A stretch of DNA of 64,000 nucleotides from Candidatus Hydrogenedentota bacterium (GTDB lineage: Bacteria; Hydrogenedentota; Hydrogenedentia; Hydrogenedentales; SLHB01). Shown piece by piece: positions 39,901 through 48,900 of this stretch. Position numbers: made by a program. Location of the stretch: NCBI GenBank assembly GCA_963745075.1, contig CAVUWV010000010.1:64001-128000 (forward strand), written 5' to 3'. Position 1 is the first letter of the stretch. The number at the start of each line of letters is the position of its first letter.

Positions 39901-42900
39901 ACCGGATAACCAATGCCATGAACGGGAGGAATGTACGGCCAAAGGCGAGGAAAGCGAGTCAGAGCGATGAACAACACCTACCTGACAGATCTGACAGACC
40001 TTTTCGACCAGCCCAAGCCTTCACATCCCACCTTTGTCACCAGGACAGCCTTGCAGCTAAGACCGATGATTGGGAGTCTTCAGCCGGCCGTTCCTCCCGT
40101 TTTGGATATATCGACATCAGATTTGGTTGGGGGGAGACATCCTTAGCCAATTCGGGGGAACTTGATTCCTCTGGGGGGAAGAGAATCCCGGCGACTTTCG
40201 GGGGAGAGACGCCGGGCTTCTCTATTTTTGGGCAGTCCCGCAGAAACTTAAATCCGAAATCCGAATATCGAAATCCGAAACAAATTCCAAATTCGAAATC
40301 CAAAATCACGCGGAAATACGTTCTATCAAACGAAGAGCGCGACGGGTACCGTAAAGGACTGCGTGCGATCTGTTTGGGACATTTCCCGTTTTGGTCATTC
40401 GAATTTGTTTCGGATTTCGATATTCGGATTTCGTGCTTCGAATCTGAGATCCCAGCTTCGGCGCGGGCATGTTGAAATGCGATTCAGCCCCGATCCGTTA
40501 CTCCATCCAGGTCTCGAACACGGCTGCAATATTCTCCGCGGGGTCCCGGTTGCCCCACTCGCACTGGGCCATGACTCCGCCGTTCCCTTTGTCCAGCGCG
40601 GCCCGGACCCGCCGCACCGCCGCGCGCACCTCGTCAACCGTCCCGAACGGCAGAATGCGCTGCCGGCAGATCTCGCCCCAAAACGTGATTTTTCCCTGGA
40701 ACTGCCGCCCGATCTCTTCGATGTTCATGCAGAAGAGCTGGCTGTTCAAGGCGTCCACGCCGATCTCGATCAAGTCCGGAATGATCTCGCGGATATGCCC
40801 GTCCGAATGAAAGAAGACCCGCTTCCCGGATGACTTGATGATGTCGCAGTACTCGCGATACATCGGCTTGAAGAAGGACCGCCACAGCTCCGGATCGATC
40901 AGCAGGCTGCCCTGCGCGCCCCAATCGTCCATGAATTGGATTCCTTCGACTTCCGTGGCCGCCCACAGTTCCAGTTCGCGCAGGAAGAAACCGTGCACCA
41001 TGTCGCGCAGGGCAAACAGTTCGGCCGGTTGCACCATCAAATCCACGAGCAGATTCTCCGTGCCCCGAAGGAACTGCATCCGCTCGAAGGGCCGCACGCC
41101 CGTCCCGGTACGCGTAAAGCGATCCGACGCCCGGCAATAGGCCGTGATGCCGGAGAAATCGGCGTTGTCCAAGATTTCGTTGGGCGGCGTGAAATCCTCC
41201 AACGCCGACCACTCGGCCAGGGGTGACCGCTTCACTTCACCGCAGACTCCGGGTTCGGCGACGGTCCAGGTGCAGTCCCATTCGTCGGTGTAAGAGCCGA
41301 CCTCAGCCGGGGTGCCCGCCATGCGTGTGCAGGGCCCGTAGGGGCTGGGCGGGTTGTCAAAGTCGACGGGGAACCGCGCCAGCAGCGTTCGCAGTTCCTC
41401 CGAACGGTACCGCTCCACCCCGGCCAGCCGCCATAGGTCGCGGGGTGCCCGGTCCGGTGTATCAAAGTCTAAACAGCGGTTTACACGCTCACGTGAATTC
41501 ATGGTTCCCCCCTTCAGAGACGATACCGGATTGACCCCTAATCCATCTGCGGGAAAAGTATACCATCGGAACAAAACGAGAATCCTGCGACCGGGAAATG
41601 GTACTATTTAGCGGGGGAACACCATGGATTACGACGAGATTGGCGTCATGCTCGGGCAGGCACCTGCCGCTTTCCATTCGGGTGGAGATGCGGAGTCGTC
41701 GCTACGCGAGCGATTCCGCCGAACCATGTTTTTCCAGCACGTCGACCGGCGCCCGAACTTCGAGTTTGGATATTGGGCCCGCACCATTGAGGTCTGGCAT
41801 TCCCAGGGTCTACCGGATTCTGTCGTCGATGAAGCGACAGCGTACGATTACTTCGGGATCGAGTCGTGGCCGGTGTTGAATGTCACGTCCAATCCGTTGC
41901 CATTGTACGAACGCACGGTCCTCGAAGAAACCGACGAATACGAAACCTATTGCGACGAACTCGGATGTATTGCGCGCATCAACAAGCACGGCGACCAGTC
42001 CATCCCACATTTCCTCGAGTACCCCGTCAAAGACCGCGCGACGTGGGAACCCTTCAAGGCGGCGATGGACCCGAACGCTCCGGCGCGTTGGGAGGACTTC
42101 GAGGAATCGCTCGTCACACTCAGTCGCGTCGATGCGCCCATTGGCGTGTACGGCGGCAGCATGGCGGGCGTTCCGCGCAATCTGATCGGCTTCGAGCATA
42201 TCGCCACGTTGCCCTACGAAGACCCCGCGTTTCTTACAGAGATCATCGACGCGTTTGGCGCGTGTACGGTGGCCGTACTCGAACGTGTGCTGCCGCGCAT
42301 CCAGGTCGACTTCTGCATGGGCTGGGAAGATATCTGCTTCAACATGGGACCCATCATCCCGCCGGACTTCTTTCGGGCCGTCGTCGGTCCGTGGTATCGG
42401 CGCATCGCAGACCTGCTGACGGCGCACGGCTGCTGCGTGTACACGACTGACACTGACGGCAACATTCTTCCCGTGGTAGACGCCTTTCTCGACAACGGCC
42501 TCAACACCATGTTTCCAGTCGAAGTCCACGCCGGTTCCGATCCCTGCCGACTGCGGGACGTGTATGGGAAACGCATCCGATTATGGGGCGGCGTGTGTAA
42601 GCGGAAACTGGCCCATTCCCGCGACGCCATCGACGCGGAACTGGAGCGGTTGCGTCCCTATGTGGAGCAAGGCGGATTTATCCCGGGTGTCGACCACCGT
42701 GTGCCGGCCGACGTGCCGCTCGACCTGTACAAGTACTATCTCGACCGCAAGCGCGACGTGCTGCGCGTGGGCGGCGAACCCAAATATTGAGCGAAATTAT
42801 GAACGGCATCGAACGCATATCGAACATTCTCCGACGCAAACCGGTGGACCGGATCGGTTTGTTCGAACACTTCTGGGGCGACACGCAGAAGAAGTGGTCC

Positions 42901-45900: not shown

Positions 45901-48900
45901 TTTCCGTCGCGGAAATGGCGGAGGCCATGCTTGCCGCGGGGGCCGACGTGCTCGGCGTGAACTGTAGTTTGGGGCCCAAAGAAATGGTCGAGGTCGTGCG
46001 AGATCTGCATGCTGCCGCTCCCGACACGCCGATCCTCGTTCATCCCAACGCCGGTATGCCGAAGCGCGCCGATGATGGGACGGTGACCTATCCCGAGTCT
46101 CCGGAAGGTATGGCGTGCCAAGTGCCCGCCCTGGTCGCGGCTGGAGCCAGCATCCTCGGCGGCTGTTGCGGTACCGGTCCCGATCACATTCGCGCTATCG
46201 CCCGGACGGTGCGGGAGTTGGCAAACCAGTAGGACAAGCAATACGATGAAACGTTTCGAGTCCCTGGTCGTTTCCGATCTCGCCGAACTGCACTTCGGTC
46301 GCGCGCCGAACCCCGTCCAGATCGCTCCACACGTTGTCGTTGGAGCGGGGGAGACCATTCCCGAAGTCAACTACATTCTCCCGTACAACAGCGAAGTCAG
46401 CGCGGCGACGCTCGAGAACGTCGTCGAGTTGTACCGGACGATGGCGCGTGGCGTGCTTCAACGCGCGGTGGACCTCGAAATCCCGCGTCTGATAATCGAA
46501 ATCGAACTGGTGTTCGAACTGACGGCCGAACCGGAGTGGGGGGAACGGGTTATCCGGGCAACCCGCGAGGCGATCGACGAGTTCGCAGAGCGCGGCGTTC
46601 AAGCTGCGCTGCGCACCACCGTGGCCGATATCCGCGACCGCGTACGCCCACCCCGAAACCGGACCAGCGGCGAAACGGAACTCGTCTTTGAAGCTTTTGA
46701 ACGCTGTGCTCCCTACTCCGATATTCTCTCCATCGAGTCAACCGGTGGAAAGGAAGTCTCGGACAACGCGCTGCTGCATTGCAGTGCCGGAGAACTCGTC
46801 TATGCCCTCGGCGTACTGGCGTCCAACGACATGGAGTTTCTCTGGAAACGCGTGTGCGCCATCGCTGCATCCCATGGAAAAGTTGCCGGCGGTGACGCCG
46901 CATGCGGATTCGCCAACACCGCCATGCAACTTGCCCGGAAACACATGGTTCCCACGGTGTTCGCCGCCGTGGTCCGTGCCATGGGCGCGGCACGTTCACT
47001 CGTGGCCGTCGAGTGCGGCGCGACCGGTCCCGACAAGGACTGCGCCTACGAGGGCCCGGTCCTGAAGGTCATCTCGGGTATTCCCATTGCCATGGAGGGC
47101 AAGTCCGCGGCCTGCGCCCATTCCAGCCCCCTGGGGAACGTGGCGATGGCCTGTTGCGACACGTGGAGCAACGAATCCGTACCGTACACGCAACTGTTCG
47201 GCGGCTACTCGCCGGAAGTCATGCTCGAACAGCTTTGGTACGACTGCAAACTGATGAACGAGGCGCTTCGCAGCGGGGATGCCTTGGTTCTGCGCGATTT
47301 GCTCACCCGTTCCGATACGGGAACCAGCGCGGAGGCGTTGGTGTTGGCGCCCGAGTCCTCCCTGCGGATTGCGCGTGCCATTGTGACTACTCCCGACCGG
47401 GCCGAACGGACGTGCCGTGCTGCGCTGGAAGCGCTTGCAATCATCACCGAAGCCCACCGCGCGGGAGCGCTGACCTTGCCGGACATCGAAATTCCGTGGC
47501 TTGACCGCATCCGGGAAGAGTTGGAAGCGTTTGCATCGGATGGTCCGCGTGCAGTGGAAGGTCAAACGGCCGCGCTTGCGGGGCAGTTCGTCGCGGAAGA
47601 GTACGGACTCTAACCCGTATTGCCGATTGGTGCAGCAGCTCTTGGCAGGGAATTCTTCCGGAACGCCCAGATCTTTCCCCTTGCGAATTCGCGCATTTCG
47701 TGGTTAGATCGTGATAGAGGCATATGGGAGGGGTTCCTATGGCTCCGTTGCGCTTTATTGATGTCCTCCGGAAGGCCGAAGCGTTCCACCGGGATCTGAG
47801 CAACTTCTACCGTTCTCGTATCGCGGAAACTCAGGACGAGCACCTTCGGGTATTGCTGGACCATCTGAGCAGGCATGAAGCGTATATCGAGCACTGCCTC
47901 GAAGAATACGAACACGGCGCATCCAGAGGCGTGCTCGATGCCTGGTTCAAGATCTCACCTAATTTCCGTGCTCTTCCACGAATGCAGCAAATGCGGGTCG
48001 GAGAAGACCTGACACGGGACGCCTTGGTCCAAATGGGGCTCGACCTTGACCGCTTTCTCATCTCCATCTACCGGGAGCTTATCGGACGGGCCATCTCGAC
48101 CCCGCTGCGCGAGGCACTTACAGACTTGCTCGATATGGAGCACCGGGAAGAAATCAGGATGATGTGCAACGCTGCGGCCGACTGAGTCAGGATTGGTGAA
48201 GGCCACAAGTGTCGGAGTGGTTGCAGCTTCCGCAGTCGTGGCCCATACCTTCCAGGAGGTCGCAGTCGTCCGGTACGTTCGGCGTATTGCGGCGCACCCA
48301 TTGCTGCACCCCGACCCACACCACGGCGATGAATACCATTCCGCCGATTCCGATTCCAAAGGTGTAAAGCAGGTGCATCATGGTACGCGACCTCATCCGG
48401 TTAGCGTCTCGACGCTTTCTTTACGTAGTGCCCAAGCCCGCAAATCCCATGAAGGCCATGGATAGAATGCCTGCGACCATCAACGCGATCGCAGTACCTT
48501 TCGCGACACCGGGTACATCGGCCAGGTTAAGCTGTTCCCGAATACCCGACATGATGATCAGGGCCAGCGCGAAGCCCAAGCCGGAGCCGATGCTGAATAC
48601 GACGCTCTGGGCGAAACTGTACTCCCGAAGCGTTTGAAACAAGGCGACGCCAAGAATGGCGCAGTTGGTGGTAATAAGCGGGAGATAAATCCCCAACGCG
48701 CGGAAGAGCGCGGGACTTGTCTTCTTGATGAACATCTCGACCAACTGCACGGTCGAAGCAATGACCACAATATAGGCGATAATGCGGAGGTATTCGGCGC
48801 CCGTTGCGATCAGCAATTGGTTGATCCCGTAGGTCAGTGTCGAACTGACCATCATGACGAATATGACGGCGCCTCCCATTCGCGACGCAGTATCCAACTT

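Follow-up and report, generated by a model that had tools for sequence, protein, structure and literature searches.

Described Systems for Corrinoid-dependent Methyl Transfer

Among known systems, the three-part Phaeobacter MetH and Ruegeria MtgBCDE come closest to the locus described here. According to the portions available of two reports (PMC5764234, PMC12478193), Phaeobacter inhibens and Ruegeria pomeroyi both encode a stand-alone PF02574 protein and a cap-B12 corrinoid protein that also receives methyl groups from a substrate-specific methyltransferase on the donor side, with a RamA/RACo-type activase gene elsewhere in the genome. Genetic work on Phaeobacter assigns methionine formation to the stand-alone PF02574 protein and corrinoid proteins (PMC5764234), and one corrinoid protein of R. 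pomeroyi is common to the donor methyltransferase and methionine synthesis (PMC12478193). The locus of the uncultured Candidatus Hydrogenedentota bacterium shares this architecture, yet its candidate donor enzymes are MtaB (methanol) and UroD-family proteins instead of the MttB-superfamily MtgB. The pterin module, MtgD, is found neither in the cluster nor free in the genome; therefore, no folate link is expected. A PF02965-type activation protein, absent from P. inhibens, is present, a complete MetH coexists, and the host is an anaerobe-type Hydrogenedentota rather than an aerobic marine proteobacterium.

MtaABC of Methanosarcina (PDB 2i2x) and acetogens has the same conserved Zn-ligand positions in MtaB and a cognate MtaC-type protein encoded in the same operon. 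In contrast to MtaABC, the present locus lacks a true MtaA (its UroD proteins fall under the MtaA/CmuA cut-offs) and has no acceptor route to coenzyme M or folate; instead, a homocysteine module adjoins MtaB. This MtaB is 40% identical to that of Methanosarcina, a figure given in the genome-wide survey's note, and scores 302 bits against 2i2x.

Thermotoga maritima similarly encodes a short activation-type protein, TM0269 (1j6r), beside its methionine synthase, TM0268. TM0268 is a fusion of homocysteine, folate, and B12 modules; the present locus encodes its modules as separate proteins and has none for folate. Huang et al. are said to have found in 2007 that TM0269 is required for reactivation.

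The core-MetE enzymes MesA, MesB, and MesC also bypass folate, forming methionine from homocysteine and a methyl-corrinoid protein, but their fold is that of MetE (Meth_synt_2), and their predicted methyl carriers are MtrA or CoFeSP (PMC7857596). Here, the module is of the MetH (PF02574) fold and the corrinoid protein is part of a methanol/UroD system; neither methanol nor MtaB occurs in the core-MetE paper. Type 1 mlp clusters of non-methanogens likewise encode several members of the UroD superfamily together with a corrinoid protein and lack a folate methyltransferase. As described in the accessible text (PMC10418091), Mlps are >25% identical to CoM methyltransferases, harbor a His-Cys-Cys site, and are associated with S/Se-methyl metabolism and with a RACE gene. 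In contrast, the UroD proteins examined here diverge much further, their sites mix His, Cys, and Asp, and they are accompanied by MtaB and a homocysteine module.

Gene Content and Organization

The window is the whole 64,000-nucleotide stretch of contig CAVUWV010000010.1 (GCA_963745075.1) that was analysed, and all coordinates not prefixed by a contig name refer to it. Its translation bears out the seven-gene set that the survey's note had placed at 40498..47613, with all seven ORFs open and intact. UroD_A (40498-41574, − strand; Pfam URO-D, 45.7 bits) is divergently transcribed from the remaining genes. Its true start is probably an ATG near 41502 because homologues start MNSRERV. The six + strand genes are UroD_B (41624-42790; URO-D, 25.1 bits), which comes first and overlaps by 4 nt UroD_C (42787-43872; URO-D, 60.5 bits), an MtaC-type corrinoid protein (43885-44574; B12-binding, 90.2 bits, and B12-binding_2, 66 bits), a short, stand-alone MetH activation-type protein (44622-45317; Met_synt_B12, 40.6 bits), a stand-alone MetH-type homocysteine S-methyltransferase module (45336-46232; S-methyl_trans, 246 bits), and the methanol:corrinoid methyltransferase MtaB (46246-47613; MtaB, 481 bits). 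These genes are tightly packed, with intergenic gaps of −4, 12, 47, 18, and 13 nt, and on this basis form an operon. Thus, the cluster does contain a loader, a carrier, a MetH-type homocysteine module, and a reactivation-type protein, with the folate module absent, as had been noted. Directly downstream of the cluster are Rnf genes, on the strand opposite to the operon, and a PFOR-like gene of 1659 aa.

Proposed Function

On balance, the operon is hypothesized to encode a methionine synthase that is modular, corrinoid-dependent, and independent of folate, in essence a split MetH whose donor modules can be exchanged and which would function beside MetH. The MtaC-type protein would carry Co(I)/methyl-Co(III), with MtaB loading it from methanol and the divergent UroD proteins, chiefly UroD_C, probably loading it from other donors, the likeliest being O-methyl compounds. 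The homocysteine module would unload methyl-MtaC onto homocysteine to yield methionine, while the TM0269-like protein and the single RACo would bring oxidised Co(II) back to the cycle. The system is envisaged as scavenging ready-made methyl groups alongside the ordinary MetH/MetF route without replacing MetH, and MtaB as an optional add-on to a conserved core of UroD protein, corrinoid protein, and homocysteine module. A point against the scheme is that homocysteine could be no bulk methyl sink because its intake is limited to the cell's need for methionine and SAM.

This scheme builds on the observed gene content, intact motifs, operon packing, conserved linkage, and the genome's holdings and gaps. 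From the sequences we infer every donor and acceptor in the cluster, along with the direction in which each methyl group moves and the physical association of the parts. The vitamin-B12 methionine synthase would thereby have been taken apart and rewired from folate to methanol and other methylated compounds. A split enzyme has been known, though only recently, from marine bacteria, and the operon would be a variation on it.

Conservation of the Core and the Position of MtaB

Linkage was counted over the 80 genome loci whose homocysteine module is closest to this one. In 41 of these, the homocysteine gene has a corrinoid gene within 4.7 kb (36 of the 41 also have a UroD gene), with a spacing of 3-173 nt in 14 loci; in the other 39, no corrinoid gene is found within the examined flank. 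UroD_A orthologues (58-73% identity) adjoin the cluster in 7 of the 80. At the genome level, 30/30 genomes harboring the homocysteine module also contain a stand-alone ORF, about 220-280 aa long, for a corrinoid protein. A full-length MetH-sized match occurs in 27/30; therefore, the cluster route would be auxiliary rather than the organism's methionine synthase. The conserved unit is a UroD protein, a corrinoid protein, and the homocysteine module, and it recurs across many Hydrogenedentota and Bacteroidota.

The genome has one copy of MtaB, which matches 2i2x_A (E 4.5e-89, residues 2-435), exactly reproducing the earlier figure. It conserves the residues aligned to E164, C220, and C269 of 2i2x, which we take to be the Zn ligands. 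A recount places MtaB in 35 of 135 Hydrogenedentota genomes, close to the 32 of 131 first reported. Of the phylum's 17 window-type MtaB loci, 7 have the homocysteine gene immediately next to MtaB, as do the related loci L002 and L010; L131, L132, and L138 have MtaB, MtaC, and UroD genes with no homocysteine gene. MtaB itself is found in 4 of the 80 closest homocysteine-module loci. It is missing from the syntenic loci of the three nearest relatives (L001, L003, and L004), which keep all other cluster parts, and from three of five other genomes of the genus; therefore, methanol is not the core donor. MtaB is an accessory donor add-on, present or absent among close relatives. The survey's proposal of a methanol-driven, folate-independent route to methionine thus stands only when widened to several donors, and the idea that MtaB takes the place of the folate module does not agree with a partner present in 4 of the 80 loci when a corrinoid gene is near in 41.

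UroD-family Proteins

No gene accompanies the corrinoid gene as constantly as UroD_C. Of 135 genomes of the phylum, 60 have a UroD_C orthologue (≥55% identity), and proteins 72-75% identical are found in Mahella, Caldicoprobacter, Atribacteria, and Anaerolineae. By hand count, 17 of the 60 genomes lack a homocysteine orthologue (≥49% identity), 13 of them having only a 39-47% identical paralogue away from corrinoid genes. The homocysteine gene is less constant than the pairing of UroD_C with MtaC. The constancy of that pair, together with the MtaB loci devoid of a homocysteine gene (L131, L132, and L138), would suit an unlikely alternative, catabolism of methanol or other methyl compounds, in which the UroD proteins are MtaA-like acceptor-side enzymes that pass the methyl group of MtaC to a thiol or another acceptor and the homocysteine module is a small anabolic branch. 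The AlphaFold model of UroD_C (pLDDT 97.6) best matches MtaA (4ay7/4ay8) and UroD enzymes among solved folds (TM 0.66-0.71), its aligned site, HSCG...HSDHS, keeps the His-x-Cys of MtaA, and the related mlp clusters without a folate methyltransferase apparently serve S-/Se-methyl compounds (PMC10418091, in part).

However, the UroD proteins with a match to the NCBIfam MtaA/CmuA models reach 36-38 bits (UroD_A, 37.6), below the cut-off of 235; no NCBIfam model matches UroD_B. UroD_C has a histidine where MtaA has its third ligand, a cysteine, and the consensus of its wider family is the carboxylate-rich HSDG...HSDHS, a type of UroD-superfamily site tied to O-methyl rather than thiol substrates (PMC10418091, in the part available). 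The putative metal site of UroD_A aligns as HSDG...AQCE. UroD_B, which barely exceeds the Pfam URO-D cut-off of 23.9 bits and is the most divergent of the three, has TDTDG at the His-x-Cys position. No acceptor pathway is evident. In addition, the genome G010 has UroD_C and MtaC alone at one place and the homocysteine module at another with no MtaB match; therefore, some UroD protein must be its donor side. In a relative, G008, the gene order is UroD_C, MtaC, Pterin_bind, the homocysteine module is elsewhere, and no full-length MetH is found in the genome; this arrangement fits the logic of MtgBCDE with a UroD protein standing as donor. Membership of the trio in the UroD family is upheld and its MtaA likeness is remote; by scores and aligned metal sites, these proteins look donor-side instead of the acceptor enzymes first supposed. 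Within the split methionine synthase favored here, UroD_C is proposed to be the donor-side (MT1) methyltransferase for some methyl donor.

Corrinoid Protein and Its Activation

The MtaC-type protein comprises cap and Rossmann domains with the motif D120-x-H122-x-x-G125, invariant in 51 sequences. Its NCBIfam matches, which include MtgC_2 (192 bits) and pyl_corrinoid (165 bits), are all under cut-offs. Its sole homologue within its own genome is the B12 domain of MetH, and it is the only methyltransferase-type corrinoid protein encoded; thus, it is the obvious client of the genome's one RACo (C20:174967-175743, inside a 626-aa ORF), the RamQ/RACo-type activator already reported on that contig.

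The activation protein covers only positions 120-246 of the 273 in the Met_synt_B12 profile, matches 1j6r (TM0269) with E 1e-9 over residues 72-206, and has a Cys-rich C-terminus. It reads RFSPGF where TM0269 has RISPGY, which counts against the split-MetH reading. Homologues adjoin homocysteine or corrinoid genes in L001-L004, L010, L047, L072, L073, L083, L084, and L086. A role in helping corrinoid reactivation is proposed.

Homocysteine Module

The homocysteine module spans the full S-methyl_trans profile and harbors a cysteine triad of Cys210 (GVNCS) and Cys277/Cys278 (GGCCG, visible in the translation as claimed). Among 51 sequences, C210 and C278 never vary, and ≥90% retain C277. The module is nearer MetH than BHMT or MmuM, scoring 160 bits against T. 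maritima MetH (1q7m), 66 against BHMT, and 58 against MmuM, and in a tree the stand-alone modules form their own clade apart from MetH N-domains. NCBIfam gives PRK07534, named BHMT, at 238 bits, similar to the 250 bits for the N-terminal half of a YitJ-type model. This similarity and the 39 loci with no corrinoid gene nearby are what might be expected of a corrinoid-independent enzyme that uses SAM, S-methylmethionine, or betaine and sits in the cluster for co-regulation only. That is improbable given the far nearer MetH structures, the corrinoid protein in all 30 module genomes, and the 14 tightly linked loci. Moreover, rhizobial "Bhmt" proteins have been argued, in the accessible part of PMC12478193, to represent MtgE, a module within a corrinoid system. 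As part of a split methionine synthase, the module is proposed to be the acceptor-side enzyme.

Genome Context

The one full-length MetH, in a 1255-aa ORF on C11, agrees with the earlier statement that a complete enzyme exists, and MetF is also present. Pterin_bind is found in MetH itself and in one strong match (281 bits), which is presumably FolP. In this 89.7% complete assembly, no MtrH-type or free pterin methyltransferase was found, and the search for CdhC gave no match, in keeping with the reported lack of CODH/ACS. Least probable of the readings considered is transfer of the methanol methyl to tetrahydrofolate, by an unrecognised methyltransferase or MetH in trans, for oxidation with Rnf electrons: MetF, the downstream Rnf and PFOR-like genes, and the pterin methyltransferase adjoining UroD_C-MtaC in G008 would fit, but the genome search for such a methyltransferase came up empty, the Rnf genes are on the opposite strand, and their full-subunit neighbourhood is common only to the genus-level L001-L004 and L010, with a fragment in L138.

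A SAH hydrolase is present and would regenerate homocysteine, and a pectin methylesterase within a SusC/SusD locus could be a source of methanol. Beyond MtaB, a small conserved ORF of 153 aa (47724-48185, + strand), helical with E/H-rich motifs and matching no Pfam or NCBIfam family, is possibly the operon's last gene. Copies 67-75% identical lie directly 3′ of the homocysteine gene in L001, L003, and L004, and a 28% identical copy adjoins MtaB in L131.

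Gene Cluster and Proposed Mechanism

The region 40498-47613 harbors seven ORFs, beginning with UroD_A on the minus strand and continuing on the plus strand with UroD_B, UroD_C, the corrinoid protein MtaC, an activation protein, a stand-alone homocysteine S-methyltransferase module, and MtaB. All seven are intact, and a Pfam search confirmed the families to which the genome-wide survey's note had assigned them. The six plus-strand genes are separated by −4, 12, 47, 18, and 13 nt, and the base composition is even throughout. A promoter and terminator scan of 40200-48500 was uninformative (4 promoter-like and 7 terminator-like sites versus 2.0 and 7.6 in shuffled sequences); a sequencing-run look-up listed no RNA run, and its 5 DNA runs contain at most 0.14 of the words.

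By a narrow balance of probability, the cluster encodes a modular, folate-independent, corrinoid-dependent methionine synthase with exchangeable donor modules. On the basis of family assignments and intact motifs, MtaB would use methanol to convert Co(I)-MtaC to methyl-Co(III)-MtaC, from which the homocysteine module, via a Zn-thiolate, would form methionine and return Co(I)-MtaC. Repair of Co(II) would be accomplished by RACo, with ATP and its ferredoxin domain, together with the activation protein, which resembles TM0269. Other donors may load MtaC via UroD_C, UroD_B, and UroD_A, the parts of the system may dock with each other, and the physiological role may be methyl scavenging beside MetH. 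The cell's demand for methionine and SAM limits how much methyl homocysteine can accept; by this rough argument, the system may be suited to anabolism or to removing rare methyl ethers, but not to bulk methanol catabolism.

MtaB, Corrinoid Protein, and Activation Protein

MtaB (455 aa) is a full-length match to PF12176 (481.4 bits, cut-off 25, profile positions 2-442 of 460), and its previously noted match to 2i2x_A (E 4.5e-89, residues 2-435) was exactly reproduced. It falls short of the NCBIfam methanogen equivalog, with 418.7 bits versus a cut-off of 720. The positions of E164, C220, and C269 of 2i2x_A are all conserved (IES/VES, GDAAC/GDTDC, and PDKDC/PGKDC); we take these residues to be the zinc ligands of Methanosarcina barkeri MtaB.

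MtaC (43885-44574, plus strand) falls in the size class of about 220 aa and matches both the B12-binding_2 cap and the B12-binding domain of Pfam. Its DxHxxG motif reads GDLHDIG, with D120, H122, and G125 invariant in 51 sequences. It falls below every NCBIfam equivalog cut-off, scoring best against MtgC_2 (192 bits versus 370), and the one homologue found by tblastn in its own genome is the B12 domain of MetH. The adjacent activation protein (44622-45317, plus strand; 231 aa) matches Met_synt_B12 (PF02965) with 40.6 bits (cut-off 25), covering only profile positions 120-246 of 273, and aligns to the stand-alone Thermotoga maritima TM0269 (1j6r, E 1e-9). Its RFSPGF corresponds to RISPGY of TM0269, RxxxGY presumably being the S-adenosylmethionine motif of the MetH activation domain.

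Homocysteine Module

The homocysteine module (45336-46232, plus strand; 298 aa) spans positions 1-283 of 283 of S-methyl_trans (PF02574; 246 bits), and its three zinc cysteines lie in GVNC210S and GGC277C278G, opposite GINCSLG and GGCCGT in the alignment with T. maritima MetH. Among solved structures, it scores 160 bits against the T. maritima MetH fragment 1q7m and 146-154 bits against full-length MetH, versus 60-67 bits for BHMT and 58 bits for Escherichia coli MmuM. In NCBIfam, it matches the N-terminal half of the YitJ-type model with 250 bits and PRK07534, named BHMT, with 238 bits, reaching no cut-off. As judged from sequence, the module is of the MetH kind. It is not a complete MetH (184 bits versus the TIGR02082 cut-off of 1010.85), standing alone rather than as one of four modules in a chain.

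Stand-alone proteins of this kind make up a large family that is well represented and conserved. Homologues reach E ≤ 0.001 in 7640 of 8000 scored candidates, and the best 120 matches, whose named sources are mostly Hydrogenedentota, measure 292-314 aa and carry PF02574 alone in 119 cases, the remaining one (P0101) also having PF02310. A quick tree groups the stand-alone modules in one clade (99% SH-aLRT), distant from the N-domains of two MetH proteins. Proteins 39-47% identical to the module (loci L139-L144), likewise stand-alone and homocysteine-methyltransferase-like, form a clade of their own; they are the sole form in 18 genomes of the phylum and have corrinoid genes adjacent in 0 of 6 loci examined, a context that gives no sign of substitution for the module.

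UroD-Family Proteins

UroD_A, UroD_B, and UroD_C match Pfam URO-D with 45.7, 25.1, and 60.5 bits, respectively. They are not MtaA: the MtaA/CmuA model (TIGR01463, cut-off 235.4) gives 37.6 bits for UroD_A, 35.9 for UroD_C, and no match for UroD_B, and only the fold is shared with MtaA/CmuA. The predicted fold of UroD_C (pLDDT 97.6, from an 87-sequence alignment) is nearest to MtaA (4ay7/4ay8) and uroporphyrinogen decarboxylases, with TM scores of 0.66-0.71 at 12-17% identity. A PDB sequence search with UroD_C returned at best E 0.039, and a search of the ESM Atlas returned generic URO-D clusters only. UroD_C has 234 cluster representatives at E ≤ 1e-30 and shares 72-75% identity with proteins from Mahella australiensis, Caldicoprobacter guelmensis, Atribacteria, and Anaerolineae.

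At the positions of the His-x-Cys...Cys zinc site of MtaA, UroD_C harbors HSCG...HSDHS, UroD_A HSDG...AQCE, and UroD_B TDTDG...GVDHR. The wider UroD_C family has the consensus HSDG...HSDHS, with H253, D336, and S338 kept in at least 90% of the 87-sequence alignment, and MtaA-like UroD proteins of Bacteroidota clusters have LHNCG...SSGCD at the same positions. Kountz and Balskus (PMC10418091) associate His-Cys-Cys sites with the S/Se-methyltransferases of the superfamily and carboxylate substitutions with O-demethylases. Application of this carboxylate rule to their sites suggests that the UroD proteins of the window may lean towards O-methyl donors.

Distribution Among Related Genomes

The survey's note had interpreted the cluster as a methanol-driven, folate-independent route to methionine in which MtaB replaces the folate module of MetH. 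Formation of methionine from methanol without folate is still plausible, but methanol appears to be one optional input of a broader system: MtaB is present in only 4 of the 80 closest module loci (L002, L010, L015, and L017) and is absent from the nearest relatives, L001, L003, and L004. An MtaC homologue lies within 4.7 kb of the module in 41 of these 80 loci, MtaC plus a UroD gene in 36, and an activation-type gene in 9. L001, L003, and L004, whose modules are 82% identical to that of the window, keep UroD genes, MtaC, the activation protein, and the module; all three UroD genes are found in L003, L004 gave no match to UroD_C, and the L001 sequence breaks off within UroD_B. In all three, the small ORF that lies 3′ of MtaB in the window directly follows the homocysteine gene and is in turn followed by the same Rnf genes. 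Because these flanks match, MtaB represents a presence/absence difference within one syntenic locus. On the quick module tree, at least 2 of the 4 changes required by the MtaB-linked label are forced by branches with good support.

MtaB occurs in 35 of 135 phylum genomes (21 of the 86 of good quality), the module at E ≤ 1e-60 in 101 (at least 49% identity in 83, as read from the table), and UroD_C orthologues of at least 55% identity in 60. By hand count, 43 of these 60 carry the module orthologue, 13 only the 39-47% paralogue, and 4 neither at that threshold. The 28 MtaB loci examined fall into two groups, 17 of the window type (61-76% identity) and 11 of a second clade (42-46%). Among the former, the homocysteine gene is immediately beside MtaB in 7, MtaC and UroD genes occur without it in 3 (L131, L132, and L138), and none of the MtaC, UroD, and homocysteine genes is seen in 7, three of which are loci shorter than 5 kb. 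The second clade (L119-L128 and L089) scores 535-574 bits in Pfam, and corrinoid, UroD, and homocysteine genes were not detected within 9 kb in its 11 loci; an ORF with weak AraC-like similarity adjoins MtaB in 5 of them.

A search of 30 module-carrying genomes found a stand-alone corrinoid ORF in all 30 and a full-length MetH-sized match in 27, of which 17 exceed the curated cut-off; the other 10, also full-length, score 673-773 bits and lie in ORFs of 1126-1268 aa. G008, among the three genomes that lack a full MetH, has an operon of UroD_C, MtaC, Pterin_bind (289 aa), and UroD (L081, G008:C11:263000-280000), with the homocysteine module on another contig. This layout is that of the published split MetH, but with a UroD protein on the donor side. 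In G010, a single 5.1-Mb chromosome with no MtaB match, only UroD_C and MtaC stand together and the module lies elsewhere; since the module can only be acceptor-side, this arrangement argues that UroD_C is a donor-side enzyme.

The flanks of nine Hydrogenedentota clusters show no recurring neighbor theme. Six loci (L003, L007, L011, L012, L013, and L079) come from records titled Nitrospiraceae, Nitrospirales, or Bathyarchaeia, with clusters 61-82% identical to those of Hydrogenedentota; these bins are probably mislabelled or mixed.

Corrinoid Methyl Transfer in the Genome

The assembly comprises 6.8 Mb in 36 contigs and is 89.7% complete, such that absences hold for the assembled part. It encodes one complete MetH, a 1255-aa ORF on contig C11 with all four Pfam modules and a gene separate from the cluster, as well as MetF, one MtaB, one RACo, SAH hydrolase, and one pectin methylesterase within a SusC/SusD-type locus. 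The only Pterin_bind matches are MetH and a 281-bit match on contig C27, presumably FolP. Neither MtrH nor a free Pterin_bind methyltransferase was matched in the assembled genome, and the methyl group on MtaC would thus have no folate exit there. An acetogenic (Wood-Ljungdahl) use of methanol is not indicated, as the same assembly has no match to acetyl-CoA synthase (CdhC) or to a methyl-corrinoid:tetrahydrofolate methyltransferase.

The genome has 20 URO-D family matches and a single methyltransferase-type corrinoid protein, the MtaC of the window, which is for this reason the evident client of RACo. Other annotated B12-binding matches are radical-SAM proteins, a MerR-type regulator, and a B12-domain-only ORF, with four further matches classed by ORF length alone. 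Of 14 UroD-paralogue loci examined (L151-L164), 6 have a GH28, PL4-like, GH3, GH99, GH123-like, or BNR gene within about 4 kb, a count uncontrolled for background gene density. One UroD paralogue adjoins SAH hydrolase, and another, at C15:62888, is a full-length MtaA-like protein (209 bits). Two single-domain Meth_synt_2 (core-MetE-like) genes, C20:168163-169179 and C23:15660-16562 (356 aa and an ORF of about 337 aa), could be further candidates for folate-independent methionine synthases; that on C20 lies 4.7 kb from the RACo gene.

Bacteroidota Operons and Glycan Utilization Loci

The module recurs at 51-58% identity in Prolixibacteraceae, including the cultured Mariniphaga sediminis and three Maribellus species. 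The conserved Bacteroidota operon consists of AraC / MtaC, a 539-aa UroD, the homocysteine module, and a CobW-type GTPase, often with an adjoining GntP permease; it is exemplified by L059:5526-10795 and 23 further loci from Mariniphaga, Maribellus, and Draconibacterium, cultured strains included. The 539-aa UroD, found in 24 of the 80 closest module loci, is MtaA-like (98 bits to 4ay7), has C-terminal thioredoxin-like domains, and has the MtaA histidine replaced (FFVCGH).

Glycan loci of Paludibacter and other Bacteroidales contain corrinoid, UroD, and activation genes. Gene orders include SSF-UroD-RhaT-MtaC-UroD-GH10-activation-EamA (L083), GH31-SSF-MtaC-UroD-activation-GH141-rhamnosidase-like (L084), and GH31-MtaC-GH141-activation-GH2 (L086). 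In L072, a SASA esterase, rhaM, and RhaT lie to one side and GH78 and GH106 to the other, and in L073 the module and an activation gene lie amid GH2, GH141, a glucuronyl-esterase-like gene, and GH31. L085 and L087 were counted with these five as Bacteroidota glycan-utilization loci with stand-alone corrinoid, UroD, or activation genes. Such contexts suggest B12-dependent processing of methylated sugars, and they hint, as a lead rather than a result, that the donors are such sugars or related compounds from plants.

A bolder proposal, entertained only tentatively and judged rather improbable as it stands, is that the window exemplifies a large and so far undescribed class of methionine synthases by which anaerobic glycan degraders harvest methyl groups in a B12-dependent manner; UroD-family demethylases and MtaB would load one corrinoid protein, and a stand-alone MetH-type module would turn the methyl into that of methionine. 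Each UroD demethylase would be specific for one methylated plant- or algal-derived compound, candidate donors being O-methyl sugars such as 4-O-methyl-glucuronate, 2-O-methyl-fucose, and 2-O-methyl-xylose, and MtaB would take methanol released from pectin. This proposal would explain why corrinoid, UroD, activation, and homocysteine genes occur in Bacteroidota polysaccharide-utilization loci with GH141, GH78/GH106, GH2, GH31, GH10, RhaT, and glucuronyl-esterase-like genes, and why a genome with so many UroD-family proteins has one corrinoid carrier. It would likewise explain the close UroD_C relatives in Mahella and Caldicoprobacter, which ferment sugars and xylan.

Comparison with Known Systems

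The modular synthase with exchangeable donors is closest to two systems. In the three-part MetH of Phaeobacter inhibens, formation of methionine depends on each of the PF02574, pterin, and corrinoid proteins, together with a RamA-like activase (PMC5764234). In MtgBCDE of Ruegeria pomeroyi, a single corrinoid protein, MtgC, is shared between a glycine-betaine methyltransferase and the synthesis of methionine; the same work reassigns the rhizobial proteins called Bhmt to the homocysteine module, MtgE (PMC12478193). Relative to these accounts, the window would employ MtaB and UroD as donor families, its genome lacks a separate pterin module (MtgD) in the 89.7% assembled, and it has a PF02965-type protein and a coexisting complete MetH. 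Core-MetE families also synthesize methionine from corrinoid proteins without folate (PMC7857596), but they have a different fold and different partners, and methanol and MtaB are unmentioned in that paper. A full-text literature search, with most subscription journals and bioRxiv supplements outside its scope, returned no description of an MtaB or UroD donor coupled to a homocysteine module and, within the same scope, none of corrinoid systems inside polysaccharide-utilization loci.

If the mechanism holds, bacteria that are not methanogens, acetogens, or methylotrophs would draw methyl for methionine and SAM directly from methanol, and possibly from sugar methyl ethers, without folate. Plant-derived methanol would gain a further, new sink in anoxic soils and sediments, and many glycan degraders would have a new reason for cobamide dependence. 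The sharing of one corrinoid protein between a split MetH and donor methyltransferases, a principle recognized only recently in marine Proteobacteria that live aerobically, would extend to Hydrogenedentota and Bacteroidota. For the related Bacteroidota operon, Mariniphaga sediminis and several species of Maribellus offer cultured, testable hosts.

Flanking Genes

Directly 3′ of the cluster, 47724-48185 (plus strand) encodes a helical 153-aa ORF with E/H-rich motifs and without a family match, which is kept at this position in the genus and adjoins MtaB in L131; it may be part of the operon. On the other side, the 185-aa ORF at 39918-40475 (plus strand), with a low-complexity translation and no family, is probably not a gene. 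Just upstream of it lies a response-regulator gene (39536-39970) conserved in L003, L004, L010, and L136.

The Rnf genes at 48421-58832 (minus strand) encode two Rnf-Nqr membrane subunits, an FMN_bind subunit, and RnfD-type and RnfC-type proteins; a functional partnership of Rnf with the cluster was rejected, as the synteny is confined to close kin. They are followed by a 1659-aa fusion that joins pyruvate:ferredoxin-oxidoreductase-like domains to several Fe-S domains and then by an Fe-S (RnfB-like) gene. A similar fusion of 1681 aa adjoins the cluster in L138.
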